Of a stretch of 64,000 bases of DNA, positions 1-55,578 are shown piece after piece. The notes below the pieces were generated by a model that saw only the letters and a program-made list of their open reading frames with translations, did not search any database and was not told the DNA's origin. The translations under genes and the position numbers were made by a program. Every line of letters begins with the position of its first letter. Positions within the stretch are counted from its first letter, which is position 1. Source of the stretch: an uncultured Alphaproteobacteria bacterium (lineage in GTDB: Bacteria; Pseudomonadota; Alphaproteobacteria; Rs-D84); the NCBI GenBank assembly GCA_905234185.1, contig CAJOGC010000002.1, forward strand, positions 103,949-167,948, read 5' to 3'.

Positions 1-1212
1 GTCCAGGGTGGCGATACAAATATGATTGTTTCTGGGAAATCTGGCAATCAATACATATTTTATTTGCGGGCCGAACCGACTAATTCGTCCGAAATCACCT
101 ATTCCCAGGTAGAGATTATAATGGACGGCAACGCAACTTTGCCTGGTGCGATTGGTACGACCCCGGCACCATCTGGCGGAATGTCATCTGTATTTAAGAA
201 GTCCAGATCTGCTTCCAACACAGTTGGTGTTGATGGTGAAGATTTTGGTTGGATAAAATCTATGAAAATCGACCCATCCGAATTCCGGTTTGATTTGGAT
301 ATATTTGTTCCGAACCCGGACGATTATGTAATTGCCCCGGAACGCGTGTGGCATGATCGCATATTCACATATATTGACTTTGGGGACAAAGTTATCGCGA
401 TGACCCAACGTCCGGTTGTTTCATTACTGGTCGAAGGTGGCGAATCCCCGGTCGGGTTCCGTACCGACGGCCAAGATGGACGTTTGCTGATTGTCGAGGC
501 GGTTGGTGACATGGTTTTGCGCAGTGGTCAACGCATCGTTTGCATTAAAAAACGTGAAAAACCGTTCCTTATCGCCGACACGAACAGTGTTATGGCCCTG
601 GCCGAGGCTAATGTCGCACAATCTATGATGTCGGGTCAATCATTAAACAATATGGCTTATGGCTATGATATGGCGGCGATAAACAGCGCGGGCATAAATT
701 ATACCGGAACGCCGGTTATGGTTGGCAATACAGCCAACACTGCAACCACTGGCTATTACATGCCGGCCGGCTTTATCGCAGGCCAGGCTTATCCACAACC
801 AACACAAAATGTTGGCACATCATCTGGCGCGGTGACAATGATGCCGACCGAACGCGTGACCGCTGGTTCGTATTTGCCCCAATCCAATATTCCAATTATT
901 TCCAGCAACCAAAGCGGTGTTGCCGTTGAATTGAAGTCCGATACTTCGGTAAAGGCGTTGGACGATTACTGGGTTGGATTATTAGCAAAATTTAGTGGTG
1001 AAAATGGCCAAGGATTATTAACCCCATACAAAGACAAAGTGTTCTTTGCGGTTGATGAACAAGGTGTAGGCGATTTGGGTTCCGGCGCAACAACGGCACG
1101 TCTGTATCGTTTGCGTATCGGGCCAATGGCTGATATTGATGCGGCACAAAAATTGTGCGACCAATTGTTAAAATTCAGTGGCGCCAGTTGCAATGTCGTC
1201 AGAATACAGTAA
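1..1212 (+). CDS. virB9: VirB9/TrbG-like type IV secretion outer-membrane core protein, 5'-partial (reading frame is open to the window edge), with a C-terminal SPOR-like extension
   Basis: The central segment VWHDRIFTYIDFGDKVIAMTQRPVVSLLVEGGESPVGFRTDGQDGRLLIVEAVGDMVLRSGQRIVCIKKR matches the VirB9 C-terminal beta domain pattern from memory. The last ~80 aa (YWVGLLAKFSG...LYRLRIGPMADIDAAQKLCDQLLKFSGASCNVVRI) look like a SPOR peptidoglycan-binding domain. A virB10-like gene follows immediately. Confidence 0.5.
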   Translation, partial: VQGGDTNMIVSGKSGNQYIFYLRAEPTNSSEITYSQVEIIMDGNATLPGAIGTTPAPSGGMSSVFKKSRSASNTVGVDGEDFGWIKSMKIDPSEFRFDLDIFVPNPDDYVIAPERVWHDRIFTYIDFGDKVIAMTQRPVVSLLVEGGESPVGFRTDGQDGRLLIVEAVGDMVLRSGQRIVCIKKREKPFLIADTNSVMALAEANVAQSMMSGQSLNNMAYGYDMAAINSAGINYTGTPVMVGNTANTATTGYYMPAGFIAGQAYPQPTQNVGTSSGAVTMMPTERVTAGSYLPQSNIPIISSNQSGVAVELKSDTSVKALDDYWVGLLAKFSGENGQGLLTPYKDKVFFAVDEQGVGDLGSGATTARLYRLRIGPMADIDAAQKLCDQLLKFSGASCNVVRIQ

Positions 1213-1221
1213 TTATTTTGG

Positions 1222-3621
1222 GTGCGGATTAATATGAGTAAACTTGGCGAACAATTTTCAGAACTGCGCAAATCAACACCAAAATATGTCCAGTGGTTAT
1301 TGCTGGCCGCGGCACTTGTTATCGTTTTAATTTTGTTGACTTTGCTTATGACGGGGCCAAAAAATAAAACGGCCCGGTCTGCCCAAAAATCTATGGACGA
1401 AACGCCTATCGAAGTTCGTATGATTACGATAAATGCCGACAACCAAGAAGTTTCTGTTGATAAAATCGATTGGGCCAATGTGATTGTCGGTGAGAAAAAG
1501 AGTACCACGATAACAATCAAAACAAATGCACCGACACGCGTATCTATGACCCAGAACAAGAATATTGTTGGGTTTTCTGCACAAACCACATGTACGGATG
1601 CGACCGTTATAAATGCAAAACTATCATGCAATATATATCTTAAATTCGAACCGACAACCGCCATGTCTCCGGAAACAGTGACATTGTCTGTTTATTGGCG
1701 CGCTGAAAACGACCCCGAAACAATGAATAACACGAAAAAGATTTCTGTCGTTTTGGGTGCCACCGCACCGGTCGTGCGACCTGAACCACAACCAATTGTC
1801 GAACCAGAACCGCTGTTTTCCGACGATTATGACGAACTTGACGATTATGATGAATATGATGACAATGTCGAACCACACCCAACAATTCGTGCGGAAATAG
1901 AATCAATTGCGCCGGCGTTGCCGTTCAATTCCGATATCGTGGAACCCGCACCCGTTGTGGAACGACCATCTGAATCTTGTTCTGATTTTGCCTTTCCGGG
2001 GTATGGTCCAAATGGAAATCAAATTGGCTGGATAAAACCCGAACGCGGCGGATATTATTTTCATCCTTTCTCGGACAAAGATTGTAAAAATGCAACGGGA
2101 ATCTATAACCCGGCAACCGGTGTTATTACCGATATCAGCGGCAATGGAACACGTATCGGAACCGATGCCGAACATATTGGGTATGCGGCCATAAATGATG
2201 GCGCATTGCCGGCACTAAATCCGGCCCCGCGTAGCGCAAGAACCGCATCTAATACCACGGTTTCTTCGACCAATGTTCCTATTGCTGGCATGGGCAAGGT
2301 TATTGTAAAGAAGGAACCAGATGTTGAATTTGCCTCCAGCGGCACAGACACCGTCACAAATACAGTTGCTTACGATCGCACCTTTATATTGCGTCAATAC
2401 AAACCTATTCCGGCGACAATCGTTTCCGATGTTCGTGCCGACCCATCGTTATACAAGCAGGGAAATACACTGCCTGTACGGGCGACGGTTGATCGCAATG
2501 TATATTCCGATAATGGACGCACTGTTATTATCCCGGCGGGGACAATGTTGTTGGGGTATCTGACCGGCACCATGCCCGGACCATATACGGCTATTGGTCG
2601 GATGGAGGTTAATTGGTATCAATTTGTTTTACCAAATGGTGTTGAGTTTAATTTCAGTGGTGCCAATGATCCGTTTTCTGGCGATGCCCAGGGGCGTGTC
2701 GGCGTTCCTGGTCGTGGCAGCACCGATTATTTGGAACAATTTGTTATGCCAATGTTAACGGCAATTGTGCCGGCGGCGGTGAATATGATTGCCCCGGTTG
2801 CCGACAAATTCGTTAATCAAATTGATTTGGACAATAATACAGTTGTACAAAGCGGAACAGTGCGATCGTCTGAATTGGCAAAGAACGAGATTATCACCGC
2901 ATGGAACCAAGTTGCCCAGAAATTATTGGTTGATATGATGGATAACACCGTGCCACCATTTACAATTCCGGCGGGGACCCGTATCACTGTTTATTCACCG
3001 GCTGATTTACAAGTCACGTGTGGCGCCCCAGGTACCAGTAATAAAAAGTGTGCCGTTGCTAAATACAGCGACGCAAAACGCCAATTGTGGAAAAATAGTG
3101 CCGAACCAGATTACTATGACGGTTCATGGGTGGGCCAGGCGCGTTCGTTCAATCTGGAACAATATTGCACAACAGACACTAATAATTTAAGGCGCGCATT
3201 ACCATACAGCGATGTTGGGGCTGAATTACAAAAACTTGGTTATTCATACAGCACGCTTGTTGCGTATTGCCAGGCAAGTAATTACCAGGCGATAAATAAT
3301 GCGCGTCAGGATGCCATTTATCAAAACCAACAAAACCCAAACAACAAAAACAGTGTTGCAAACGCCACCGCCCAGGGGACCAAAACATATAATGAACAGG
3401 TTCTTGGATTGAAATACAATGACGATGGTTCTATTAAGAATCCGTATCAGTCGGAAAAGAAACCAGAATCACAACAACCGACTAATGTCATCACATGTGA
3501 TGATGGTTTGGCACCGGACCAATACGGGTGTTGCACGGGTGAAATATACACAGATATGGGCGAACAGGGTTTCAATTGCTGTCCCCAATCTGGTGGCGAT
3601 TGTTTCCCGCCGATTTTGTGA
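1222..3621 (+). CDS. virB10: VirB10/TrbI-family (DotG-like) type IV secretion protein, 799 aa, with a ~230-aa Cys-rich C-terminal extension
   Basis: An N-terminal TM helix is followed by a Pro-rich acidic linker (PEPQPIVEPEP, DDYDELDDYDEYDD). The C-terminal barrel region carries VIIPAGTMLLGY...WYQFVLPNGVEFNFSGANDPFSGDAQGRVGVPGRGSTDYLEQF...IPAGTRITV, which is typical of the VirB10/TrbI signature. The tail has about 7 Cys in its last 45 aa. A GTG start lies at 1222 and an alternative ATG at 1234. Confidence 0.6.
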   Translation: MRINMSKLGEQFSELRKSTPKYVQWLLLAAALVIVLILLTLLMTGPKNKTARSAQKSMDETPIEVRMITINADNQEVSVDKIDWANVIVGEKKSTTITIKTNAPTRVSMTQNKNIVGFSAQTTCTDATVINAKLSCNIYLKFEPTTAMSPETVTLSVYWRAENDPETMNNTKKISVVLGATAPVVRPEPQPIVEPEPLFSDDYDELDDYDEYDDNVEPHPTIRAEIESIAPALPFNSDIVEPAPVVERPSESCSDFAFPGYGPNGNQIGWIKPERGGYYFHPFSDKDCKNATGIYNPATGVITDISGNGTRIGTDAEHIGYAAINDGALPALNPAPRSARTASNTTVSSTNVPIAGMGKVIVKKEPDVEFASSGTDTVTNTVAYDRTFILRQYKPIPATIVSDVRADPSLYKQGNTLPVRATVDRNVYSDNGRTVIIPAGTMLLGYLTGTMPGPYTAIGRMEVNWYQFVLPNGVEFNFSGANDPFSGDAQGRVGVPGRGSTDYLEQFVMPMLTAIVPAAVNMIAPVADKFVNQIDLDNNTVVQSGTVRSSELAKNEIITAWNQVAQKLLVDMMDNTVPPFTIPAGTRITVYSPADLQVTCGAPGTSNKKCAVAKYSDAKRQLWKNSAEPDYYDGSWVGQARSFNLEQYCTTDTNNLRRALPYSDVGAELQKLGYSYSTLVAYCQASNYQAINNARQDAIYQNQQNPNNKNSVANATAQGTKTYNEQVLGLKYNDDGSIKNPYQSEKKPESQQPTNVITCDDGLAPDQYGCCTGEIYTDMGEQGFNCCPQSGGDCFPPIL

Positions 3622-6225: not shown

Positions 6226-6756
6226 CTATTGTTTATTTGCGCGCATACAACGACGACGCGCCAAAATCCAATTCAAAATATATAAACCAACACCGACACA
6301 AATAAATATGTCCGCAACATTAAATGCCGGCCAATGTGCCCCACCAATATGAAAGTCCAAAAAATCCACCACGGCGCCAAAACGCATACGGTCAATTAAA
6401 TTGCCCAATGCCCCACCAACAATGAACGCCAACGGCAATCGTTCATAACTTTGCGCACGATAAAACAAGTAATATGAAATTGCCCCGATTACAAATGCGG
6501 TCAAAACAATTATGATAATCGGCGCGGCTTCGCCCAATGCACGAAACAATGAAAACGAAGTTCCAGGATTCCAAGTAAACACAACATTAAAGAAATCTGT
6601 CACATGCGACATTAAATATGGTACCGGAATTAATTGCCACGCAGGTGCAAACATCGGAACACGACCCGTAATAAGGTTTATCAATACACCCTTGGTTAAC
6701 TGATCCAGCAATATGATTGCTAAAATAATCAACAGATATCTGAAAATCTTTTTCAT
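6226..6756 (-). CDS. lspA: lipoprotein signal peptidase II
   Basis: Carries [11 protein letters not shown] and [38 protein letters not shown] motifs. The start is adjusted to the internal ATG (MKKIFRYLL); the track ORF extends to 6813. Confidence 0.8.
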
Positions 6757-6843: not shown

Positions 6844-8562
6844 TTATTCAGATAATTTTACGGAATCATCCAAACATGCATAATCATTTTCACGTAATTC
6901 ATTTAACACACTGTGTATTTTTGTATCGGGCATTCCCATATGACGCAACGCCCGACAACCCAATACAGCGGCTGTTTCAATCGTTTCTGGTAATGCATTA
7001 CATGCACCGTACTTACGCAAAGTCTTGCAATCAGCCAGATTACGCGCACGTGCAAATATTTTGACACGCGGCGCAATAGATTTGACAGTCAACAATGCAT
7101 CTTTGGCGGTTTCCGCATTATCCAGCGCGACAATCACCGCCGCTGTTTTACGCGGATGCAAACCAAAATTGCGCAACACATCGGCATTTTTACAATTACC
7201 GAATACAACATTATAACCCTTTTCACGGCCACGCACGATTGCGTTTACATCCATATCAATCGCAACATATGGGACACAGTTTTGTTCCATTAATTTAGAA
7301 ACAATCTGACCGACACGTCCAAATCCCAATACAATAACTTTTGGTGCGATTTCCAAACCAGATCTGTCCAGACTACGTGGACGATATGCGGCAAAAATCC
7401 ACCCACGGCGGCGCAGGAAATCGTACATCGCCAACAACATTGGCGTTGTCATAATAGACAGTATTATGGTTGCCGTTAAAACTTCGGAACTGGTTGCCGG
7501 GATTGCGTTTATTCCCGCAGTTTTCATCGTCTGCAACATCAACAACCCAAATTCGCCCCCCTGGGACAGCATCAACGCCATAAACACCGCGTCCGGCACC
7601 AACATGCCACGCACGCGCGACACCATGAACAGCGCCATGAATTTTATAAATACCAAACCGCCCAAACCAACCAAGATATATTTCCATTTCATTAACAACA
7701 ACGGCACATTTAAGCCCATGCCAAGCGCGATAAAGAAAAATGCCAGGAATAACATCGAATACGGACTTATTTCCGCACTGATTTGATGGCGATAAATTGT
7801 TTCCGACATTAACATACCGGCCAAGAACGCGCCCAGGCCAACCGGCAACCCCATCATATCTAAAACCGTCGCCCAAATAACGATATTCAGCATAACGGTT
7901 AACAATAATGCTTCGCGACTTTTCAATTTCACAACACGTTTTAACAGCGGATTCAATATAAACCGACCAACAATTACAACCGATATAATCAACAGCAACG
8001 ATAACACCGCAACATCGATTGCCGTCGCACCAAAATTAAATGATTTGCCTGCAAACACCGGCAACATGGCTAAAATAGGAATCGACAATAAATCTTGGAA
8101 CAATAAAATAGAAAACGATTGATTTCCGACATTAGTATTTAATTCGTTTCTGTCTGACAATAATTGTAAATCTTCGGATGTACTGGACATCGCCAAAATC
8201 AGCGCAACCATAATACACCCCAACACCGACCAACGCGTAATACCAAACAATATCGGAAATAACATTACCGCAACGGTCAATACCTGGGACGCACCAAGCC
8301 CAAATATCGTTTTGCGCATAGACCACAGGCGGCTCATATTAATTTCCAAACCAATATTGAACCACAAAAACAAAATGCCCATATCACCCAGTAATTGCCA
8401 GGTTTGATTCATTTCAAAAAGGTTTAATCCAAACGGCCCCGACAAAATACCCGCTGCTAAAAACGCAACCAATGCCCCAATACGTGCGGCGCGCAGGAAG
8501 CATACCAACACAAACAAAATCCCAAAAAATATTAAAAACGATAATGGCATATCTCTCTCCAA
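6844..8562 (-). CDS. Kef-type (CPA2) K+/H+ antiporter with C-terminal TrkA-N (NAD-binding) domain
   Basis: Polytopic N-terminal transporter region plus a C-terminal VIVLGFGRVGQIVSKLM Rossmann motif. Confidence 0.75.
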   Translation of the reverse strand: MERDMPLSFLIFFGILFVLVCFLRAARIGALVAFLAAGILSGPFGLNLFEMNQTWQLLGDMGILFLWFNIGLEINMSRLWSMRKTIFGLGASQVLTVAVMLFPILFGITRWSVLGCIMVALILAMSSTSEDLQLLSDRNELNTNVGNQSFSILLFQDLLSIPILAMLPVFAGKSFNFGATAIDVAVLSLLLIISVVIVGRFILNPLLKRVVKLKSREALLLTVMLNIVIWATVLDMMGLPVGLGAFLAGMLMSETIYRHQISAEISPYSMLFLAFFFIALGMGLNVPLLLMKWKYILVGLGGLVFIKFMALFMVSRVRGMLVPDAVFMALMLSQGGEFGLLMLQTMKTAGINAIPATSSEVLTATIILSIMTTPMLLAMYDFLRRRGWIFAAYRPRSLDRSGLEIAPKVIVLGFGRVGQIVSKLMEQNCVPYVAIDMDVNAIVRGREKGYNVVFGNCKNADVLRNFGLHPRKTAAVIVALDNAETAKDALLTVKSIAPRVKIFARARNLADCKTLRKYGACNALPETIETAAVLGCRALRHMGMPDTKIHSVLNELRENDYACLDDSVKLSE

Positions 8563-8573
8563 TTATTGATTAA

Positions 8574-9416
8574 TTATACCACACTCTTGGCAATTTTTAC
8601 AAATGTTTCAGGTGTTAATTCCTGGGCTCGTTCGGTTCCCGACAACCCAAATTGCTTCCAATCCATACCCGGCATAATTCCGCGTATCATTTTGCGACGC
8701 TGGCCGAAAAGTTTTGCGGTTATATTTTCTATTTTTGATAAATCGCCAATCTGTTTCATCTTTTCCGCATTCGGAATAATTTGCACAACCGCACTTTCAA
8801 CCTTTGGTCGCGGGACAAAAGCGGTCGACGGCACACCAAACAATATTTTTGCATCCGCAATTAACGATGTTAACACCGACAAGCGACCATATTGCGCGTC
8901 ACCAGGCTTTGCAACAATGCGTTGTGCAACCTCGCGCTGGAACATTAGTGTCATAGAATTTATGATTTCTGATTTATGATTTCTGATTTGTTCATAGGAT
9001 AAGTGCAACCAATTTAATAATAATTCCGTCCCCACATTATATGGCAGGTTCGCGCAAATCGCATATTCCGTCACCCCCAGCGCACCAAAATCTACTTTCA
9101 GCGCATCATCATAAATTACTTCCAAGCGACCATTGGACGCATCAATAACCCGCGACAAAATTGGTGCGGTTGTTTTATCTTTTTCAATCGCAATAACACG
9201 TGGTGCACCCGCCAACAGCAATGCGCGGGTTAACCCCGCGGGGCCTGGTCCAACCTCTATCACTGGAATCTTTTTAATATTCGGCACGCTGCGTGCAATC
9301 CGTCCAGTCAGATTTAAATCAAACAAGAAATTCTGTCCGAATTGCTTTTTCGGTTCCAAACCACATTCGCGCATCATTTCGGATACGGGTGGCAAAGATT
9401 CTATTTTCATCGTCAT
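8574..9416 (-). CDS. rsmA: 16S rRNA (adenine1518/1519-N6)-dimethyltransferase RsmA/KsgA
   Basis: FGQNFLFDLNLTGRIA and VIEVGPGPAGLTRALL SAM-binding motifs. Confidence 0.85.
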   Translation of the reverse strand: MTMKIESLPPVSEMMRECGLEPKKQFGQNFLFDLNLTGRIARSVPNIKKIPVIEVGPGPAGLTRALLLAGAPRVIAIEKDKTTAPILSRVIDASNGRLEVIYDDALKVDFGALGVTEYAICANLPYNVGTELLLNWLHLSYEQIRNHKSEIINSMTLMFQREVAQRIVAKPGDAQYGRLSVLTSLIADAKILFGVPSTAFVPRPKVESAVVQIIPNAEKMKQIGDLSKIENITAKLFGQRRKMIRGIMPGMDWKQFGLSGTERAQELTPETFVKIAKSVV

Positions 9417-10016: not shown

Positions 10017-11183
10017 TCAATGAAACACATAGCAATCGATTCCGTTCGCGGTCGCGGTCGCTTTTAACGACTGCGCCGCGCTTTCCGTCAGCCCATATGC
10101 ACGCACACGGAACAGTCCACTTGGCGCAGTTTCGATAATTGGTGTTGCGCCAGTCACACGTTGAACGGTCGCAATCATTTTTGATGCGGCATCGCGCGAT
10201 GAAAACGCCCCGAATTGAACCCCTGGACCACTGTGCGATGCGGTTGGCACATGATTTGTTGCCGCATGATATGCCCCCGCAAAAGTGTTCACCGCTGTTG
10301 CGCTTTCATAATTTTGATTCTGTTGTTGTGGTTTGCTTTCTACTGGTGTTGCCACTGGGGTTTCACGCACAACCATTGCCGGTGCCGGATTTTTTTCAAC
10401 CATTGCGAAACCACGATTCAGCAAATTTGTTGCCACCGCGGCACGTACATCTTTGTTTTCCGCCCCCAAAACAACCGCCATAAGATGTTTATCACCACGT
10501 CGCGCGGTTGCAACCAATGAATATTTTGATTTATTTGTGTATCCGGTTTTCATACCATCACAGCCCGGGAAAGATCCCAACAAACGATTTCCATTGGTAT
10601 ATGTTTTACCACCATACGTCCATGTTTTGATTCCAAAATACTTCCAATATTGCGGGAAATGTTTATACACCGCCATCGACACCAACGCAATATCACGCGC
10701 CGTTGATAAATGGTCATCATCCGGCAGGCCCGAACTGTTTTCAAAATTAGTCCGCGACAGCCCTATTTCGCGTGCGACACGCGTCATCAGGGACGCAAAA
10801 TTGCCCTCTTTGCCACCTTTCAGATTTTCCGCCAACACGCGTGCGATATCGTTCGCACTGTGCACCGCGACCGCCTTGATCGCATCTTCTACTGTAATTT
10901 TGGAACCCGCCGGAATACCAAGTTTTACCGGTTCCGCATTCGCCGCCGCATTGGACACAATCAGATAGTCATCCAAATGCAACCGCCCATGTTCCAACGC
11001 ATCAAACGTCAGATACAGCGTCATAATTTTTGTTAAACTTGCCGGATAGTTCAAATCAGTTGCGTTTTCCGAATACAGAACCCGCCCCGAATCCATATCG
11101 GCGACCATTGCCGCGCGGTAATTTGCCGCGTGTGCAATCGATGCTATAAACAGCATCGGTAAAATAAGAAATCTTCCCTTCAT
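10017..11183 (-). CDS. D-alanyl-D-alanine carboxypeptidase (PBP5 family) with C-terminal SPOR domain
   Basis: Signal peptide, an SLTKIMT active-site serine motif, and a C-terminal GVQFGAFSSRDAASKM...LFRVRAYGL SPOR-type repeat. Confidence 0.8.
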   Translation of the reverse strand: MKGRFLILPMLFIASIAHAANYRAAMVADMDSGRVLYSENATDLNYPASLTKIMTLYLTFDALEHGRLHLDDYLIVSNAAANAEPVKLGIPAGSKITVEDAIKAVAVHSANDIARVLAENLKGGKEGNFASLMTRVAREIGLSRTNFENSSGLPDDDHLSTARDIALVSMAVYKHFPQYWKYFGIKTWTYGGKTYTNGNRLLGSFPGCDGMKTGYTNKSKYSLVATARRGDKHLMAVVLGAENKDVRAAVATNLLNRGFAMVEKNPAPAMVVRETPVATPVESKPQQQNQNYESATAVNTFAGAYHAATNHVPTASHSGPGVQFGAFSSRDAASKMIATVQRVTGATPIIETAPSGLFRVRAYGLTESAAQSLKATATANGIDCYVFH

Positions 11184-11278: not shown

Positions 11279-12961
11279 ATGAAACAAAAGTCATACATTA
11301 TTGACGATAAACAACTGATGTCCGAATGGGACTGGGATGCCAATGTTGGTTTAGATCCGAAAACATTAACCCGTGGATCAAATAAAAAGGCATGGTGGGT
11401 ATGTTCGGTATGTGGGCATAAATGGTGTGCCGATATACATCATAGAGCCGTAAGAAAACAAGGTTGTTTAAACTGCCGATATGTATATAAAAAACAACTT
11501 GCTTCTATTTTGTCTGAAACACATCCAAAAGTCCTTAAATACTGGGATTTTTCAAAAAATAAATTGATAACCCCCGAAATTGTCAGCCAGAATTCGCGTA
11601 AAAGCGTTTGGTGGCATTGTCCAGATTGTGGCCATGAATGGGAAGAAAAAATAAAAAATCAGGTTAAAAAATTAGTTTGGTGCCCACATTGTAAGAAGGG
11701 AATTAAAGATTTGGCTTCTGTGGAACCAGAACTTGCAAAAGAATGGCATAAAACAAAAAATACTGATGCCCCAGAACATATTTCGTATGCTTCTAACAAA
11801 TATGCATGGTGGAAATGCCAAAAGTGTGGTTACGAATGGAAAGCCAGAATAGCCAACAGGTCAATATTGAAACGGGGGTGTCCTTGTTGTTCTGGTGGTG
11901 CGGTTGTCGTCGGAATAAACGATTTAAAAACAAAGTTTCCGCATATAGCAAAAGAATGGCACCCTACAAAAAACGGTGAACTTTTACCAGAACAAGTCAC
12001 TTCTGGTACAAGAAAGAAAGTTTGGTGGCAATGCCCACTGGGACACGAATACCAAGCAACGGTAGGACACAGGACATCACAAAATGGCACAGGGTGTCCA
12101 ATATGTTATTCAGGACGTCAAACATCATTCGCTGAACAGGCTGTATTCTTTTATGTAAAACAATTATATCCCGACGCACTAAGCAGGTATAAGGCAGACT
12201 TTTTGGGAAAATTTGAATTGGATATTTATATCCCATCAATCAAATATGCGATAGAATACGATGGTGAAGCATGGCATAAAGCGAATAAATTAGAACGCGA
12301 AAAACGAAAGTATCAATTGTGCAAACAGAACGGCATCACATTACTCAGATTACGAGAAAAGGAACCAGAACATGATGCTGAAGTGGCAGATGATATAATT
12401 TGTGTGAAAAATCTATACGAACACAGAAATCTTGAAATGGTATTAAGACGGTTATTGGTGAAATTGAACCCGCAATCGGTAATGCCTGACAACTTTGTTA
12501 ATTTGGCCAGGGATAATCATAAAATCTTGGAATATAAAAAATCGGCCATATCAGAATCATTGATGTCCGTCAGACCAGATATTGCGATGGAATGGCATCC
12601 AACAAAAAATGGTAACCTGTTACCAAGTATGTTTAAAGCAGGTTCTGAACATAAAGTATGGTGGATTTGTCCAAAGTGTGCCACCGAATATCAAACAAGT
12701 ATTGCTCATAGAACAGATAAAAAGGTTCCAACAGGATGCCCAAAGTGTGGCAAAGAGCGAAGTGACTTAGCGAAAAGTGTCGCTGTAAATATGTTAGATT
12801 TGAAAACGAAAAAAGTATTAAAAACATTCGTTTCTGTATCAGATGCATCAAGGCAAATGAAAATCAATTTATCTAACATATGTATGGCTTGCAAAGGCCA
12901 ACGCAACCAAGCTGGTGGGTACGGTTGGGAATATAATTTAAAAATATGCAAAAGAAAATAA
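11279..12961 (+). CDS. zinc-ribbon-repeat / PD-(D/E)xK (DUF559-like) / NUMOD1 composite protein (homing-endonuclease-like), 560 aa
   Basis: Five WW-x-C-x2-C-x-H-x-W...C-x2-C treble-clef repeats. The central block FELDIYIPSIKYAIEYDGEAWH...GITLLRLRE matches the DUF559/Vsr-like nuclease core. The C-terminal block VSVSDASRQMKINLSNICMACKGQRNQAGGYGWEY matches the NUMOD1 pattern. Confidence 0.6.
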   Translation: MKQKSYIIDDKQLMSEWDWDANVGLDPKTLTRGSNKKAWWVCSVCGHKWCADIHHRAVRKQGCLNCRYVYKKQLASILSETHPKVLKYWDFSKNKLITPEIVSQNSRKSVWWHCPDCGHEWEEKIKNQVKKLVWCPHCKKGIKDLASVEPELAKEWHKTKNTDAPEHISYASNKYAWWKCQKCGYEWKARIANRSILKRGCPCCSGGAVVVGINDLKTKFPHIAKEWHPTKNGELLPEQVTSGTRKKVWWQCPLGHEYQATVGHRTSQNGTGCPICYSGRQTSFAEQAVFFYVKQLYPDALSRYKADFLGKFELDIYIPSIKYAIEYDGEAWHKANKLEREKRKYQLCKQNGITLLRLREKEPEHDAEVADDIICVKNLYEHRNLEMVLRRLLVKLNPQSVMPDNFVNLARDNHKILEYKKSAISESLMSVRPDIAMEWHPTKNGNLLPSMFKAGSEHKVWWICPKCATEYQTSIAHRTDKKVPTGCPKCGKERSDLAKSVAVNMLDLKTKKVLKTFVSVSDASRQMKINLSNICMACKGQRNQAGGYGWEYNLKICKRK

Positions 12962-17169: not shown

Positions 17170-17218
17170 TATCAGCCCCTTGGTGTATATTTTATAAAAA
17201 ACAAAACCGCCCAAGAAA

Positions 17219-17414
17219 GAGCGGTCGGGGAGTTAGAAAATCAGTTAAGTATGACTCCGCGGTCTTTAGATATACACACGCGGCTCCCCAACCATAGGTC
17301 AGGGATGATTACGGTGCAAAAACACCGAAACATCATTTTAACGATGCTTTCGCACCGACTTAACAGGACTTTCTACAGCCCGAACCCAATCTCTTGGATT
17401 CATTTCTTATTATA
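17219..17414. repeat. R220 repeat, copy 1 (about 200 bp; a second copy is at 26794-26992)
   Basis: Shared blocks cggtcgggg.gtt.gaaaatca, gattacgg...caccg, cccgaacc and gattcatttcttattata. Hairpin arms 17223-17232 and 17284-17293 show a compensatory base change relative to copy 2. Confidence 0.6.
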
Positions 17415-17489
17415 CCTTATTTATGCCTAATTGCAAACAGATTGATTTATCATTGCGAGGGAGCATAGCGACCGCGGCAATCCATAAAA

Positions 17490-17616
17490 ACTACCCCGCC
17501 ACTTCGTGACACCCCTTCGCTCGCGAAGGGGATTTTACTTTCTGGAATCATAGCATAAATCCCCTTCACTGTGTGAAGGGGTGGATTGCGAACGTTAGTG
17601 AGAAAGACGGGGTAGT
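17490..17616. mobile_element. MITE family 1, copy 1 (terminal inverted repeat actaccccg...cggggtagt, two internal ccccttc...gaagggg hairpins)
   Basis: The ends are exact reverse complements. The internal tctggaatcata core is shared with the copies at 25702-25834 and 27028-27088. Confidence 0.65.
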
Positions 17617-17618
17617 CC

Positions 17619-17785
17619 CCTGCCCCCTTGTGGGGCGGGATAGATTTATTTACGAACAAAGTGAGTTAATAAATCTTGGGTGGGGGAATTATAGGCGTTC
17701 TGTTTGCCCCCACCCAAGAGTCGCTAGTTCACATACGTTCACAAGCCGACTCTGTCCCGCCCCGCACGCTTTGCGCGGGGGCAGG
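17619..17785. mobile_element. MITE family 2: empty derivative of the DUF559 element (left and right ~70-80-bp TIRs separated by a 19-bp spacer)
   Basis: Left arm ctgcccccttgtggggcgggatag...cttgggtggggg. The right arm gcccccacccaagagtcgctagttcac...ctgtcccgcccc...gggggcagg is the reverse complement of the left TIR of the element at 39430-39983. Confidence 0.65.
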
Positions 17786-17789
17786 TCAA

Positions 17790-19364
17790 TTAATGCTTGT
17801 GTTTCTTTGCTGCGGCGATGAATGCGTTAAACATCGGGTGGCCGGTGTATGGGCTGCTTTGGAACTCTGGATGGAATTGTCCGGCAATAAAGAACGGATG
17901 GTTTTTCAATTCCACTATTTCCGGCAGGCGTCCGTCGGGACTGCGTCCCGAAATTATCATGCCCGCGTCCGCGAATTGCTTTTCGTATTCTATATTCATC
18001 TCGTACCGATGACGGTGCCGTTCCGAAATATGTTCCGCGCCCCAAATACTGTGCGCCAGTGTCCCCGGCGTAATGTCGCACGGATACGCGCCCAATCGCA
18101 ATGTTCCCCCCATATTTTTCGAATCGTGATCTGCCATAATGCCAATCACTGGGGTGCAATTCTTGTTAAACTCGGTCGAATCGGCATCCGCAATGCCCAA
18201 AACATTACGCGCAAATTCAATGACGGCAACCTGCATCCCCAGGCATATACCCATATATGGCACGCCGTTTTCACGCGCATAACCCGCCGCGGCAATTTTA
18301 CCCGCGACCCCGCGCGAACCGAACCCGCCGGGCACCAAGATTCCGTCAACATCGCTACACGTTTCCGGTGTGAATTCTTCGGCATTTATCTTTTTAATCT
18401 TTACATGCACATTGTTTTGGATGCCGGCGTGAAACAGTGCCTCGTTCAGCGATTTATACGCATCCGGCACATGAAAGTATTTTCCCACCATGCCGATTGT
18501 GACCGTCGGCAAATCCGCATCCAGGTAATGTTCAATCCGCCGAAACCTGTCCATATTGCCCGCGGCGTTTGGCAAACCAAAATGGTCGGCAATTATATCA
18601 AAGACATGTTGTGCGTCATATGCCAATGGAATCTTGTAAATATTATCAACATCAATGCCACTAATTACATTCTGCGCCGGCAAATTACAGAACATACCGA
18701 TTTTTGCGCGTTCATCCGGTTCCAACATGCGCGGTGTTCGCACGATTAGCATATCTGCCTGAATCCCGTTTTCAAGTAAGTTCCGCACCGACATTTGTGT
18801 TGGTTTTGTCTTTAATTCGCCACTTTTTTCCAAATATGGTGCCAATGTTAAATGAATAAACATAACATTGCGGCGACCAACATCGTTCGCAAATTGACGG
18901 ATTGATTCCAAAAATATCTTGCCCTCGATATCGCCCACCGTTCCGCCGATTTCACAGACAACGAAATCAGTATCGGTTGGTGCGGAAATATATTCTTTTA
19001 TCTTATTACTGACGTGCGGAATCATTTGCACTGTCGCGCCCAGATAATCGCCGCGTCGTTCCGCATTTAGAACATCCCAATATATGCGCCCACCAGACAC
19101 AGAATCGGCGCGACCCAATTTTGCACCCAAAAACCGTTCGTAATATCCCAGATCCAAGTCCGTTTCAAAACCGTCGTTTGTCACATAAACCTCGCCATGC
19201 TGAAACGGGGACATTGTGCCCGGGTCTATATTCAAATAAGGGTCAAATTTTCGCGCATGAACGGTATATCCGCGCGATTGTAAAAGGGCGCCACAACTTG
19301 CCGCCGCGACGCCCTTGCCTAAACTGGAAACCACACCACCGGTAATGAATATATATTTCGCCAT
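17790..19364 (-). CDS. pyrG: CTP synthase
   Basis: N-terminal synthetase domain (IFITGGVVSSLGKG) and C-terminal glutamine amidotransferase domain (GICLGMQ). Confidence 0.9.
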   Translation of the reverse strand: MAKYIFITGGVVSSLGKGVAAASCGALLQSRGYTVHARKFDPYLNIDPGTMSPFQHGEVYVTNDGFETDLDLGYYERFLGAKLGRADSVSGGRIYWDVLNAERRGDYLGATVQMIPHVSNKIKEYISAPTDTDFVVCEIGGTVGDIEGKIFLESIRQFANDVGRRNVMFIHLTLAPYLEKSGELKTKPTQMSVRNLLENGIQADMLIVRTPRMLEPDERAKIGMFCNLPAQNVISGIDVDNIYKIPLAYDAQHVFDIIADHFGLPNAAGNMDRFRRIEHYLDADLPTVTIGMVGKYFHVPDAYKSLNEALFHAGIQNNVHVKIKKINAEEFTPETCSDVDGILVPGGFGSRGVAGKIAAAGYARENGVPYMGICLGMQVAVIEFARNVLGIADADSTEFNKNCTPVIGIMADHDSKNMGGTLRLGAYPCDITPGTLAHSIWGAEHISERHRHRYEMNIEYEKQFADAGMIISGRSPDGRLPEIVELKNHPFFIAGQFHPEFQSSPYTGHPMFNAFIAAAKKHKH

Positions 19365-19444: not shown

Positions 19445-21376
19445 ATGAATGAAACATTGGAAAATCAACGGCCTAATCTGTTTTTGTGGGTGCCATTTGT
19501 AATGGCGGCGGGGGCGGCGTTATATTTTTCGTGTTCGCATGAACCGAAACTGCCGTTTTGTTGGTTGTTTGCTATTATTACATTTTGCGCCGCGGCGTTT
19601 TTGCGCACGCCAATCATTATTCGCGGAATATTACTTTTTGTTTTTGGTTTTTGTTATGCGAACGCTTACACAAATATGCTTGATACACCAATTATGCCAC
19701 GCGACATGCACGATATAAGTATTACTGGTCGCATTACGGCAATTGACCATACACCCGACAAAGCCAGAATTTTTATTCGTGTGCCAAACCCAGTCCTTAA
19801 TATAAAAGCGAATGGCGATTCAATTGTTCGTGTTTCTGTTGAACTGGATACTGTTCCGAAACCAGGCGACATAATATCAACAACCGCGACACTGTTCACG
19901 CCAACCCCACCAGACATATATGGCGGGTTCGACTTTGCACGATGGGCATATTTCAACGGAATTACCGCGACGGGATATGCGGACAATATAACAATATCAT
20001 CGAACGGCACAACAAATAATATTCGTGATTGGTTGCACAATAAATCAGATTCCATATTAGTGGACAGTTTAGTACTGGGGTATAAAAACACTTTACCAAA
20101 GGCGGAACGCGCAACTTGGGTGTCCGCCGGTGTCGGACACATTTGGTCAATAAGTGGTTTTCATATGACATTAATCGGTGGTTGGCTGTTTGCGATTTTC
20201 TATTTTATATTTCGTTGCATACCGTCCGTTGTTCGTCGCATACCGGCACGACACATTGCGGCAATATTCGCATGGATTGGCGTTATGATTTATTTATTCG
20301 TATCAGGCATGGGGGTTGCAACAATTCGCGCCTTTTTAATGGCAACGTTATTAATGGTCGCCGCGATTATGGGACGGTCCGCTTTTTCATTACGCAATGT
20401 ATGCTTGGTGTTTTGTTTAATATTTTTGATAAACCCATATTATGTGATGACCGCCGGTTTTCAATTATCGTTTTCCGCAATATTCGGATTGGTATGGTTT
20501 TGGACCGTGGTTAACCCAAAACTGCCTGAAAATAGAATATTGCGCACATTGTGCACCGCTGTTTTGACAGCGACAATCGCATCACTTTTTACTGCACCAT
20601 TTGTCGCATTGCATTTTTATTCGGTACCATTATACAGCATTATTGGCAACCTGGTCTTGTTACCAATATTTTCATTTGTAATAATGCCGCTGGTAATAAT
20701 TGGATCACTGCTTGCATTATTTAATGTTTATTTTCCATTACATATCGCGGATTATGCTTACCATTGGGCGCTGGACATTGCGAATCACATATCACATTTG
20801 CCGTTTGCAACAATGACACCGGCACATGTTTCCAACACTGCAATTTGTTTTATCGTTTTTGGCATGATGTGCATCGTTTTTGTTCGCCCGGTCCGGCTAA
20901 AGATTAATTATATTCTAGGTGCAATTTTTATCTTAATCGGCACAATTATTGTTGCCGCAACCCCACGACCTGTTTTCTTTGCGACACCGGATCACGAACT
21001 GGTTGGTGTTGTACAAAATGGTGAAATATTATTTAACAAATCACGCGCATCAAACCACTATTTTGCATTTGATATATGGAAACATTTAACCAACAGCGAT
21101 ATAAATACACAAAACAATCGTGCAAAACATAATCGCGGATTGTATATCTTTGAAACGCCGAAATATAAAATTGCATATATACAGAAATTCACAGCATTAC
21201 AAAATAACATCGCTAAACTTTGCGACGATGAAAATATAGATTTTATAGTTTCATATCTGGAAATAAATGGCGACCGTTGTGCAAACAAGATTTTGCATGG
21301 TGGTTTTACAATTTATGAAAACGGGAAAATTATTTATGTACCGACATCTCGTCGTTGGAATAATCTGCACCAATAA
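19445..21376 (+). CDS. comEC: ComEC/Rec2-family DNA internalization membrane protein
   Basis: DUF4131-like N-terminal region plus a competence domain (WVSAGVGHIWSISGFHMTLIGG). Polytopic. The start is placed at the ATG at 19445; the track begins at a TTG at 19409. Confidence 0.7.
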   Translation: MNETLENQRPNLFLWVPFVMAAGAALYFSCSHEPKLPFCWLFAIITFCAAAFLRTPIIIRGILLFVFGFCYANAYTNMLDTPIMPRDMHDISITGRITAIDHTPDKARIFIRVPNPVLNIKANGDSIVRVSVELDTVPKPGDIISTTATLFTPTPPDIYGGFDFARWAYFNGITATGYADNITISSNGTTNNIRDWLHNKSDSILVDSLVLGYKNTLPKAERATWVSAGVGHIWSISGFHMTLIGGWLFAIFYFIFRCIPSVVRRIPARHIAAIFAWIGVMIYLFVSGMGVATIRAFLMATLLMVAAIMGRSAFSLRNVCLVFCLIFLINPYYVMTAGFQLSFSAIFGLVWFWTVVNPKLPENRILRTLCTAVLTATIASLFTAPFVALHFYSVPLYSIIGNLVLLPIFSFVIMPLVIIGSLLALFNVYFPLHIADYAYHWALDIANHISHLPFATMTPAHVSNTAICFIVFGMMCIVFVRPVRLKINYILGAIFILIGTIIVAATPRPVFFATPDHELVGVVQNGEILFNKSRASNHYFAFDIWKHLTNSDINTQNNRAKHNRGLYIFETPKYKIAYIQKFTALQNNIAKLCDDENIDFIVSYLEINGDRCANKILHGGFTIYENGKIIYVPTSRRWNNLHQ

Positions 21377-22088
21377 AATACAGACCCGATGCCGGTGCGG
21401 TCGGTCCCGCCGCACTACGATTTTTCGCTTTCAGAACCTTTTCAATATCATATGGTTTACCAATACCAATTTCAACCAGTGTTCCAACCATATTACGAAC
21501 CATGTGATGCAAAAATGACCGCGCAGAAAATTCAAAAATAATTTCATCGCCACGACGCGTGATTTTACATTCGTCCAATGTTTTTATTGGGGACTTTGCC
21601 TGACACTCCGATGCGCGAAAACTTGAAAAATCATGTTTACCAATTAACTTTGCGCCCGCGCGTTTCATTGCCGCAACATTTAATTTACGTGGCACCCACC
21701 AAACACGATTTTTATCCAGCACCGGCATTGCCGAACGATTCAGCACGATATAAATGTAATGTCGTTTGATACAATCAAACCGTGCATTAAAATTGTTTGC
21801 AGCAACTTCACAATCCAAAACCGACACCGGCTTATTCACCAAGTAGAAGTTCAAAGCACGCATAACCGTATTCGCGTCCCGCTTACCTTTTAAATCAAAG
21901 TGCGCAACCATTGCAATCGCATGAACCCCTGCATCGGTCCGCCCCGCGCCAACAATATCGGGGCGTTCACCACAAAATGCAAAAATTGCATCGGACAGAA
22001 TTGATTGCACAGACGGCCCCTGGCGGTTTTCCTGCCACCCTATTAAATCTGTACCATCGTATTCCAAGATTACTTTATATCGTGTCAT
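21330..22088 (-). CDS. truA: tRNA pseudouridine(38-40) synthase
   Basis: RYKVILEYDGTDLIGWQ and GAGRTDAGVHA catalytic Asp motif. Confidence 0.85.
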   Translation of the reverse strand: MTRYKVILEYDGTDLIGWQENRQGPSVQSILSDAIFAFCGERPDIVGAGRTDAGVHAIAMVAHFDLKGKRDANTVMRALNFYLVNKPVSVLDCEVAANNFNARFDCIKRHYIYIVLNRSAMPVLDKNRVWWVPRKLNVAAMKRAGAKLIGKHDFSSFRASECQAKSPIKTLDECKITRRGDEIIFEFSARSFLHHMVRNMVGTLVEIGIGKPYDIEKVLKAKNRSAAGPTAPASGLYFIGADYSNDEMSVHK

Positions 22089-50076: not shown

Positions 50077-50130
50077 AAAAATCTCCTTTCTATGCTGACA
50101 TTTTATCACAAAGTTTGTGGAAAATAAATC

Positions 50131-50430: not shown

Positions 50431-50489
50431 AAAACCACCCCTTGAATCACTTTCTGGGGTATTATAGCACATTTTTTTGGAATATTAAA

Positions 50490-53639: not shown

Positions 53640-54149
53640 TTAATAGCGTCCGATACACCCTAAATAAGAATTACCGGTCGATTCGAGAATATTTATAAAC
53701 TGATTCTGATTTTTACCGGAAAACAGTGCCAAAATAGTTCCGGCATCTGTGGCCAGCATATCCGCCACCGTTGCGATGGACGAATTCATTTTCTTGAAAA
53801 ATCCACTGGCTGGGTATATTTCCGCGGCAAACAATTGATGACCACCACGCGTATTTGCGGAATTTTCCGCGCGGATAACCATCAGTTGACATTCCGGTGA
53901 AATAATAACTTTGTCCGTCACGACGGCACCGCCACCAAGCAATTCGCCCCACCAGCCCGTCGATTCGCAAAACACGGGATAGTACACGATCGCATCTGGG
54001 TTTGATTCGAATATAGAAGGCAAATCCAAATCCGTTGATATAACATCCGGCATTTCGCCCGTTGCGGTATTTATAACCTTGCGTGCCAACTGATATGTTG
54101 CATCACCATTTGTTTTGCGTGGCCAATAAAGAATCGGAAACTGCTTCAT
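53640..54149 (-). CDS. conserved hypothetical protein (169 aa)
   Basis: Clean ORF. I recognise no family. Confidence 0.4.
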   Translation of the reverse strand: MKQFPILYWPRKTNGDATYQLARKVINTATGEMPDVISTDLDLPSIFESNPDAIVYYPVFCESTGWWGELLGGGAVVTDKVIISPECQLMVIRAENSANTRGGHQLFAAEIYPASGFFKKMNSSIATVADMLATDAGTILALFSGKNQNQFINILESTGNSYLGCIGRY

Positions 54150-54217
54150 TGATGTGAATTATATCAGATTCGGAACACATAAAAAAGGGGCATATGTAAA
54201 ATAAAGCACTTGATTTT

Positions 54218-55504
54218 TTATTTTTTTATAACTTTCCAGAGTTTCTGCAGGTTTGCCCACGTCACTTCCAGGTTCTTTTTTGTCGTCTGATAGAATTTAT
54301 CCGATATTTTTACATTGAACAATGTTTCGATAAGTGCGGGAATAGATGTCATAAACATAGCGATAAATATCCCCATAAGGATGATTGTCACAATGCTGTC
54401 ATTACGCATCATCAATCCATCCATAAGAATTGTCGAATCGTTCTGTGCAAGTGCCGTCACTAATGCATTCGCCCCGCCCCAATCACCAAACATCGCGTCC
54501 AAGAACATTATTGCAAATGTCACAAATATACCAGTCAATGCCAGTCCCAATGTCCCCTTGACCACATCATCGATAATCGATTCGATATTTTTTCCACCAC
54601 CCGGCAATATTTTCCACCCATTAAATATCCATGCCAATAAGTTTAATGGCAACATTATCAAATCCAGTGATAAATTTATGAATATTTCCAAGAAAAAGAT
54701 GGGTATCGGCAATAATGCCGCAAAAAACAAAACCAGTATTAGTAATCCGCTAAAAAATATTAATACATTCGGGAAAATCGGAATATCCAGAATAATTTTG
54801 TGCATATACTTTTCATTAAATGCCATATTCAGCATCGTCCATCCCACCGCCATCCCAAGCCCGGTCATTTGATGAACAACCCCTAATTCACATGCCAGAT
54901 TATGACGCAACTTTGGTGAAAATGCCCCGCGCGACGCCGCATCCACAGACACAGATGCCGGATCCGCAATTGCGGTCGCAATGATACAATTATTAAATTC
55001 ATCATCGCCAACAACGATATGATTCATTGACATGCCTACATTAAATATCGGTTCTATTGCTATATCATTTATCATTCGTGGCAATGGCGCGACCAATAGC
55101 CCACAAACAACCGCTAATTTTATAACACGCACGCCAAAATCACCGGACAATGACCATGGTTCAATATTTTTTGCATTCATATAATTTGAAAGTAATTGCC
55201 ACGCAAACCAAATTGCCAAAAATGCCGCTGCAAACGGGATAATTACCGCACCAATCGCACTGTACACCCCCGGCAAAATATCAGACATCGTTCCAATTAC
55301 ATCCGAAAACATCTGGCACGACCAACATGTCGAAAAGAAATTAAGCGCGTCACTCATGTTAACCGGAACGGCCGTACGGTATATTGCAAACCCGGCTAAA
55401 ACGCCAACCCCTGCGATTGCGCCGACGACCCATGGTGCCACCGCCCCCGCCGCAAATGGCAAGAACGATAAAAACACTATCCAAAACTTTCTAAACCTAT
55501 TCAT
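54218..55504 (-). CDS. polytopic membrane protein, paralog A of the five-gene membrane-protein cluster (VirB6/TrbL-like, tentative)
   Basis: Signal-like N-terminus and multiple TM helices. Shared paralog motif LPLNLLAWIFNGW. Transcribed divergently from paralogs B-E. Confidence 0.45.
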   Translation of the reverse strand: MNRFRKFWIVFLSFLPFAAGAVAPWVVGAIAGVGVLAGFAIYRTAVPVNMSDALNFFSTCWSCQMFSDVIGTMSDILPGVYSAIGAVIIPFAAAFLAIWFAWQLLSNYMNAKNIEPWSLSGDFGVRVIKLAVVCGLLVAPLPRMINDIAIEPIFNVGMSMNHIVVGDDEFNNCIIATAIADPASVSVDAASRGAFSPKLRHNLACELGVVHQMTGLGMAVGWTMLNMAFNEKYMHKIILDIPIFPNVLIFFSGLLILVLFFAALLPIPIFFLEIFINLSLDLIMLPLNLLAWIFNGWKILPGGGKNIESIIDDVVKGTLGLALTGIFVTFAIMFLDAMFGDWGGANALVTALAQNDSTILMDGLMMRNDSIVTIILMGIFIAMFMTSIPALIETLFNVKISDKFYQTTKKNLEVTWANLQKLWKVIKK

Positions 55505-55516
55505 ATCATAATAAGT

Positions 55517-55544
55517 ATATCACATTTTGTCCCAAATGTGATAT
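55517..55544. promoter_or_regulatory. perfect 11-bp inverted repeat ATATCACATTT-N6-AAATGTGATAT in the divergent promoter region, overlapping a TATAAT -10 element
   Basis: Centered in the 74-bp intergenic region between paralog A (-) and paralogs B-E (+). The TATAAT hexamer lies at 55542-55547. Confidence 0.55.
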
Positions 55545-55578
55545 AATTGAAAAGATAAAAATGTAAACACGAGAGAGA

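Follow-up and report, generated by a model that had tools for sequence, protein, structure and literature searches.

A short intergenic region that carries a perfect inverted repeat across a -10 box, between genes that are read away from each other, raises the question of what the symmetry is for. An earlier note on this locus had taken the repeat to be the operator of a dimeric repressor that places the genes on both sides under one control. We examined the repeat in the window (the whole stretch of DNA that was analyzed, 64,000 nucleotides) and in related loci, and asked whether such an operator, an RNA or DNA structure, a trace of past rearrangement, or the promoters themselves best account for it.

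A perfect inverted repeat between gene A and the B-C-D-E operon

The genes that flank the repeat, and the parts of the repeat itself, are as follows:

54218–55504, minus strand: gene A, encoding a 428-aa polytopic membrane protein
55579–60765, plus strand: the B-C-D-E operon, with 4-nt overlaps between successive genes
55579–56817, plus strand: gene B
56814–58025, plus strand: gene C
58022–59458, plus strand: gene D
59455–60765, plus strand: gene E
55517–55527: left arm of the repeat, ATATCACATTT (12 bp when T55516 is included)
55528–55533: spacer, TGTCCC
55534–55544: right arm of the repeat, AAATGTGATAT (12 bp when A55545 is included)

Direct reading of the sequence bore out the description of the repeat that had been given before: ATATCACATTT-TGTCCC-AAATGTGATAT at 55517–55544 is a perfect 11-bp inverted repeat with a 6-nt spacer, and its arms reach 12 bp once T55516 and A55545 are counted. 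Its location was also as claimed, in the 74-bp divergent gap (55505–55578) that has gene A to the left on the minus strand and gene B to the right on the plus strand, and the right arm does overlap a TATAAT hexamer (55542–55547) that is well placed for B-E. Weaker symmetry extends beyond the dyad, to arms of 29 nt with 76% complementarity. Folded as single-stranded DNA, the A/B gap formed a 12-bp stem at -9 kcal/mol, compared with -2.9 ± 1.5 kcal/mol for shuffled sequences (z = -4.2), and none of 200 shuffles folded equally well. No second copy of the dyad was found in the 64-kb window with up to three mismatches allowed. By our own estimate, about 0.6 perfect 11-bp inverted repeats with spacers of up to 40 nt would arise by chance per 64 kb; a lone repeat of this kind is thus not very improbable, and it is because of its conservation, described below, that we regard the dyad as functional.

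Each arm reads as a predicted extended -10 promoter

A consensus scan of the plus strand returned ATCACA-17 bp-TATAAT preceded by TG, with 10 of 12 matches, and the minus strand returned ATCACA-17 bp-TATACT preceded by TG, which is the mirror image of the former within the dyad. The plus-strand reading of the right arm together with three more bases is TGTGATATAAT, while the left arm read on the minus strand is TGTGATATACT, and both fit the extended -10 or “-16 region” form TRTGnTATAAT. The predicted elements are:

55537–55547, plus strand: predicted extended -10 of B-E, TGTG-A-TATAAT (TRTG, one free base, then the hexamer at 55542–55547)
55514–55524, minus strand: predicted extended -10 of gene A, TGTG-A-TATACT (hexamer from 55519 to 55514)
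55519–55524, plus strand: -35-like ATCACA of the B-E promoter, 17 bp upstream of TATAAT
55537–55542, minus strand: -35-like ATCACA of the gene A promoter, 17 bp upstream of TATACT
55571–55578, plus strand: purine-rich, Shine-Dalgarno-like run GAGAGAGA preceding the ATG of B

The reading that we favor, at a probability of about 70%, is that the palindrome consists of two overlapping divergent promoters of the sigma-70 extended -10 type, one for each gene set. Each arm, AAA-TGTG-A-TATA, would supply an AT-rich stretch near -18, a TRTG/TGn motif and the first bases of a -10 hexamer. The right arm, as TGTGATATAAT, would fire rightwards into B-C-D-E from a predicted start near 55553–55555, giving a leader of about 25 nt that includes a Shine-Dalgarno sequence, and the left arm, as TGTGATATACT on the other strand, would fire leftwards into gene A from a start predicted at 55504–55508, which is 0–3 nt from the ATG. 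TGTGAT read on the complementary strand becomes ATCACA, four of whose six positions agree with TTGACA, and each arm therefore also gives a -35-like hexamer to the opposite promoter, and the 6-nt gap between the arms sets this hexamer exactly 17 bp from the opposite -10. Promoter logic alone therefore accounts for the sequence, the length and the spacing of the dyad, whose symmetry would be a by-product of one promoter consensus mirrored on itself rather than a recognition site for a protein dimer.

Each arm is completed by an AAA at -18 to -20. As AT-rich spacer sequence at about -18 stimulates promoters and compensates for weak -35 elements (PMC12825309), this part of each arm is accounted for as well. 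Because the two RNA polymerase sites overlap almost completely, the A and B-E transcription units would be physically coupled, and two polymerases probably compete for the overlapping sites.

This arrangement may be compared with strict bidirectional promoters, in which a -10 element is shared and the starts lie 10, 18 or 23 bp apart (Warman/Grainger, PMC12825309). The A/B pair resembles them in having a pseudo-symmetric sequence, two divergent transcripts, and footprints that cannot both be occupied. It differs from them in that there are two -10 hexamers, 22 bp apart (55514–55519 and 55542–55547), in that the predicted starts are about 47–50 bp apart, and in that each -10 region doubles as the -35 of the other promoter. 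By analogy, the A/B pair may show the kinds of competition that bidirectional promoters are described as having.

The same promoter form precedes other genes

The pattern TRTGnTAWAMT matched five times in 64 kb, each time immediately upstream of a gene start, the five genes being the one at 6844–8562, mraY, mliC, A and B. The related TGATATAAT was also present upstream of a gene for a 169-aa protein, and apart from those of A and B, none of these sites is palindromic. The mliC promoter has the same AT-rich feature as the arms of the dyad (AAAAAAATGTGCTATAAT). Judging from these occurrences, the TRTGnTATAAT form is the ordinary promoter of this organism.

As a side observation, the TGTGnTAWAAT promoters at 8573–8583, 50100–50110 and 50461–50471 (all on the minus strand), which lie upstream of the 6844–8562 gene, mraY and mliC, bear on the annotation of these three genes. 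The starts given by their longest open reading frames are probably too far upstream, and translation of the three more likely begins at MPLSF..., MLTDFF... and MKKILIC..., respectively.

The gene for the 169-aa protein served as a control:

53640–54149, minus strand: gene for the 169-aa protein, downstream of A and with its own promoter
54158–54166, minus strand: TGATATAAT, the promoter of this gene, within 54150–54217

Its promoter is one-directional and non-palindromic, and CCGAATCTGATATAATTC is at least 95% conserved. This indicates that promoters of the genus normally have about 18–20 invariant nt around the -10 element, and so the A/B block of about 47 bp is what two adjacent promoters of this kind would give. 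The hexamer of the 169-aa gene lies exactly 8 nt from the ATG in 76 of 76 loci, with no Shine-Dalgarno sequence, which is a leaderless layout. The protein itself has a median identity of about 77% across species, and it had no Pfam, NCBIfam or PDB match.

Gene A shares with the 169-aa gene, and with leaderless mRNAs in general, a -10 hexamer placed 7–9 nt before an invariant ATG and the lack of a Shine-Dalgarno sequence. Its start codon was ATG in 80 of 80 species, with a conserved beginning, MN(R/W/K)(L/F)KKFW, and the distance from the minus-strand hexamer to this ATG was 7 nt in 22 species and 8 nt in 47 (69 of 80 together). Neither a Shine-Dalgarno sequence nor any other purine-rich run was found before gene A across the species loci. 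Because the ATG follows the minus-strand -10 so closely, the gene A mRNA is apparently leaderless or nearly so; in the window itself, the gap is 9 nt, which suggests a leader of 2–3 nt and hence a transcript that would not be strictly leaderless. The ATG of B is preceded in most species by GAGAGA, GGGGG or GGGA runs. We also observed TATAAT 7–8 nt before an ATG at 11279 (plus strand) and at 21330–22088 (minus strand), where one gene encodes a 560-aa protein and the other a protein that is TruA-like by eye. This organism may have many leaderless starts.

Conservation of the dyad across Candidatus Enterousia

For comparison, we used 80 species loci, one genome per species, which had been retrieved by protein similarity alone and in which B was 55–82% identical. 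The homologues of B came from uncultured gut and rumen Alphaproteobacteria, and many of the retrieved loci were named Candidatus Enterousia. Together with the window these made 81 sequences, and per-column conservation was calculated from the 76 that aligned without gaps. Every one of the 80 species loci had the dyad block in the corresponding place, within the following region:

55513–55559: genus-wide conserved block holding both promoters (76 ungapped loci)

The pattern of the 76 sequences was AA[G]TATA[Y]CA[Y]ATTTTG-nnnn-AAAT[R]TGATATAATTGA. Upstream of B, TGATATAATTGA, which includes the TATAAT at 55542–55547, was found in 81 of 81 sequences, and A-n-TATA was found upstream of gene A in just as many. 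The dyad is a genuine, functional element that has been kept throughout the genus, although it is of an ordinary kind.

Conservation was not evenly shared between the arms. Among the 76 ungapped sequences, left-arm position 55520 was T in 58 and C in 18, and position 55523 was C in 30 and T in 46, with all other left-arm positions invariant. The partners of these two positions in the right arm were A in 76 of 76 sequences (55541) and G in 71 with A in five (55538), and the rest of the right arm was essentially invariant. Within the spacer, the TG at 55528–55529 was conserved while the central four positions (55530–55533) varied freely, at 0.4–0.95 bits. As a result the dyad was perfect in 26 of the 81 sequences and imperfect in 55, 42 sequences having one mismatch and 13 having two. 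The spacer was 6 nt long in 76 of the 81 sequences, 7 nt in four and 5 nt in one; a promoter pair that needs 17 bp from -35 to -10 would hold this spacing fixed just as an operator would.

When changes were placed on the tree of protein B, at least 10 were needed at 55520 and at least 14 at 55523, compared with none at 55541 and three at 55538 in the opposite arm. Compensation was almost absent: of the 46 ungapped species with T55523, 41 lacked A55538, and none of the 18 with C55520 had a change at 55541. The two left-arm positions that vary are the R and the n of the minus-strand TRTGn, and only these two vary on the left, with the TG of the extended -10 invariant on both strands. The minus-strand hexamer was TATACT in 67 of the 81 sequences, TATAAT in eight and TATAGT in six, so that it varied at hexamer position 5 only (55515), while its T-A-T-A and its final T were invariant. 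The bases that vary (R, n and hexamer position 5) are those that the promoter consensus leaves free, which fits the promoter reading. In this respect both arms match sigma-70/sigma-A promoters of the extended -10 (TGn)/TRTGnTATAAT class, in which the hexamer position that varies here is the weakly constrained one. Compared with extended -10 promoters of model organisms, the flanks in Enterousia are far more conserved, and the sigma factor here is predicted from sequence.

The -35-like hexamers also differed in their conservation. The ATCACA of the B-E promoter (55519–55524) was poorly conserved at hexamer positions 2 and 5, and a consensus extended -10 would be expected to make this -35 element dispensable. 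The ATCACA of the gene A promoter (55537–55542) was nearly invariant, the exception being 55538, which was A in five of 76 sequences. After the fact, the right arm could be read as frozen at 55538 and 55541 because the weaker TATACT promoter would need them as positions 2 and 5 of its -35. The invariance of the AAAT/ATTT tracts and of the TG at 55528–55529 exceeds the usual constraint on a promoter spacer, and it is explained only partly by the AT-rich effect at -18 and the double promoter use.

One clade (L061, L066, L068 and L078) had a 1-bp insertion in the right arm, upstream of B (AAATTGTG). In these four loci the minus-strand hexamer was the consensus TATAAT, lying 10 nt from the ATG of A. 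The L068 record (CAVGNU010000001.1) is titled “Bacteroides fragilis” in GTDB, yet it carries the alphaproteobacterial A/B locus, and it is probably a mislabeled or contaminated bin.

The same pattern of substitutions bears on a structural role, in which the inverted repeat would control stability, termination or translation by forming a hairpin in an RNA leader or a cruciform in DNA. The 12-bp stem, its -9 kcal/mol and its z of -4.2 speak for such a structure, and the left-arm C-to-T change would keep a G-U pair in plus-strand RNA. The T-to-C change at 55520, however, produces a C-A mismatch in 18 species with nothing to compensate for it, and, given the predicted starts, both arms would not be found together in either transcript. 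For the dyad to fall in a leader of A, transcription would have to begin further upstream; the one promoter-like site there, at 55840–55812 inside B, is not conserved, TATAAT being present there in three of 81 sequences. The dyad, moreover, has no T-tract and lies between gene starts rather than gene ends, and it has no Rfam match: a search of 55200–55900 gave nothing at E ≤ 1, and the whole window at the gathering threshold gave two tRNAs only. We consider a structural role to be very improbable, more so than any other explanation discussed here.

The operator reading and the search for a regulator

The reading of the earlier note would be that the dyad, besides holding the promoters, is bound at its two arms by a dimeric transcription factor, under which the two promoters are repressed or co-regulated. 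Several features of the dyad are of the kind that this would produce. Perfect arms of 11–12 bp around a variable 4-bp center recall classical contacted half-sites with an uncontacted core; the dyad overlaps both predicted -10 elements; its spacing is fixed in 76 of 81 species; and the AAAT/ATTT tracts are invariant beyond what a promoter spacer usually needs. In addition, the right-arm G-to-A change is accompanied in all five species that have it by a matching T on the left, although this is not significant (naive p of about 0.08, about three origins).

Palindromic repressor operators that overlap a -10 at divergent genes are known from layouts of the tetR/tetA type. The A/B dyad is like these in lying in a short divergent gap and in overlapping -10 hexamers, but it is unlike them in that no regulator gene is adjacent, the arms are asymmetrically conserved, and their sequence is the promoter consensus. 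The asymmetry of constraint between the half-sites, with 55 of 81 dyads imperfect, runs against recognition by a dimer, as does the fact that 1-bp insertions or deletions between the arms are tolerated in five species. The arm sequence is a general promoter motif that is found elsewhere without any dyad. No DNA-binding gene lies within the conserved neighborhood, and the whole 64 kb has two regulators only, a MarR, which adjoins an efflux operon, and a MerR at a distance of about 20 kb. That the host genomes are merely 0.75–1.0 Mb also counts against this reading (PMC12306168).

Further copies of the dyad, which a shared operator might have shown, were absent from the window and from 90 loci (about 0.7 Mb of related loci). 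Degenerate dyads were in no excess over shuffled sequences (two observed and 1.8 expected; 18 observed and 13.6 expected), and half-sites were not enriched in the window (eight observed and 4.6 expected), with the exact half-site at 20789 lying inside a coding region. A metagenome scan for the dyad returned 55 matches, of which 29 were the same A/B junction; the other 26 were on unrelated AT-rich contigs that had no homologue of A or B, such as L137 (beside an L33 gene and an ATPase), L123 and L098. The scan thus offered no sign of further sites. Recurrence at unrelated loci as part of a repeat element, which the earlier note had named as the result that would speak against its reading, was looked for and not seen. 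A dispersed repeat of the REP/MITE kind was likewise rejected, there being one copy per locus, always at the A/B junction.

Known classes of binding site were also compared. CRP/FNR-type sites have the form TGTGA-N6-TCACA, with AAATGTGA as the consensus half-site, and the right arm does contain AAATGTGA, identical to the CRP consensus half-site. The half-sites here, unlike those of CRP/FNR, face outward (TCACA-N12-TGTGA), with no properly oriented partner 6 bp away, and we rejected a CRP-like site on account of this everted orientation. We rejected an operator of the MerR spacer type as well, as both predicted promoter spacers are 17 bp rather than 19–20 bp. Comparison by eye with a DnaA box, a Fur box, an IHF site and a CtrA site gave no convincing match.

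From this, we regard regulation by a dimeric factor on top of the promoters as unlikely. The claim of a dimeric repressor operator is left unsupported by the general nature of the arm motif, the asymmetric conservation, the shifts in arm spacing, and the lack of both a second copy and a regulator gene in the conserved neighborhood. The wider claim that the two gene sets are under one control holds insofar as they share a transcription-control element, but no repressor is needed for it. A further reading, in which the dyad is more than two promoters and acts as a symmetric switch, seems to us more doubtful still; either a factor or two RNA polymerases that strictly exclude each other would then decide how much of the putatively VirB6-like protein A is made relative to B-E. 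If true, gut symbionts with genomes of about 0.75–1.0 Mb would have in this switch a compact means of controlling a type IV secretion membrane module specific to their lineage, and the switch would have arisen when A flipped out of an ancestral five-gene operon.

Genes A-E and the origin of the divergent layout

The neighborhood of the dyad is conserved, in the order MraY, MliC, PBP1A, IMPase, L31, the 169-aa protein, A, the gap, B-C-D-E and UvrD. Enterousia, of the order Rs-D84, has reduced genomes of about 0.75–1.0 Mb (PMC12306168). The A-E proteins are about 400–480 aa long. They had been described as paralogs, and this shows only faintly at the sequence level: A and C matched at E = 1e-6, while the other pairs did not match significantly, and cross-matches from distant orthologues support a remote common origin of all five. 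Sequence searches of A-E against Pfam, NCBIfam and PDB were all negative, and the Pfam TrbL/VirB6 model gave no match even at E ≤ 10. A first AlphaFold model, built from 12 sequences, was too poor for use (pLDDT 50). In a later model of moderate confidence (pLDDT 60), the predicted fold of B was closest to TrwI/VirB6 and then to DotA, and B is thus predicted to resemble VirB6 in fold. A-E constitute a lineage-restricted, conserved five-gene set of polytopic membrane proteins.

Tandem VirB6 paralogues are a feature of the Rickettsiales vir homologue (rvh) type IV secretion system. The layout of A-E recalls them, and differs in the lack of a match to Pfam TrbL/VirB6. As a separate observation on type IV secretion genes in the window, the region 22–3621 encodes two homologues in succession, first one of VirB9 (CagX), which carries a SPOR domain at its C terminus, and then one of VirB10/TrbI, which at 799 aa is unusually long. 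Downstream of these are two small open reading frames and YidC; no VirB11 or VirD4 gene was seen there.

Two more distant loci, L146 (a MAG named “Rickettsiales bacterium”) and L147, contain one-to-one orthologues of A-E in a single co-directional row:

L146, 6649–13239: orthologues of A-E, co-directional, A the first gene
L147, 791–6591: orthologues of A-E, co-directional, A the first gene

Upstream of the first gene, these loci have an ordinary TATAAT and a Shine-Dalgarno sequence and no dyad. Comparison of the loci indicates that the five genes were ancestrally one operon, and since the distant relatives are co-directional and lack the dyad, the divergent layout and the palindrome would have arisen in the Enterousia lineage by inversion of A. 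The earlier idea that A-E act as a unit fits with such an ancestral operon, although what links them now would be a shared promoter region and not a repressor.

An inversion of this kind could in principle explain the symmetry by itself, as the remnant of an inverted duplication made when A and its promoter flipped out of an A-B-C-D-E operon, with no function beyond that of the promoters that were copied. The co-directional, dyad-free loci of the distant relatives agree with this, as does the weaker symmetry that reaches to 29-nt arms with 76% complementarity. Such a history is nonetheless compatible with the pair of divergent promoters rather than an alternative to it, and the invariance of the dyad across the genus shows present-day selection. 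That the symmetry is nothing but such a remnant is therefore, in our judgment, quite improbable, if slightly less so than a structural role.

The L146 locus also contains a repeat, present twice (6470–6550 and 10395–10470), that is resembled by a non-coding stretch of about 575 bp at 17215–17790 of the window. This stretch is full of GC-rich stem-loops, for example ccccttcgctcgcgaagggg and ccccttcactgtgtgaagggg, and had no Rfam match.

Implications

A repressor site is not the only possible reason for a perfect palindrome that covers a -10 box. In AT-rich bacteria with small genomes, a palindrome at -10 can arise from a strong extended -10 promoter that is mirrored, and this calls for caution when such repeats are read as operators. 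The A/B junction offers a clean, genus-wide case of an overlapping divergent pair in which the -10 regions would double as the -35 elements of the partner and one of the genes is apparently leaderless. A by-product of the analysis is the putatively VirB6-like, conserved five-gene set in Candidatus Enterousia, which may interest those who study type IV secretion in symbionts with reduced genomes.
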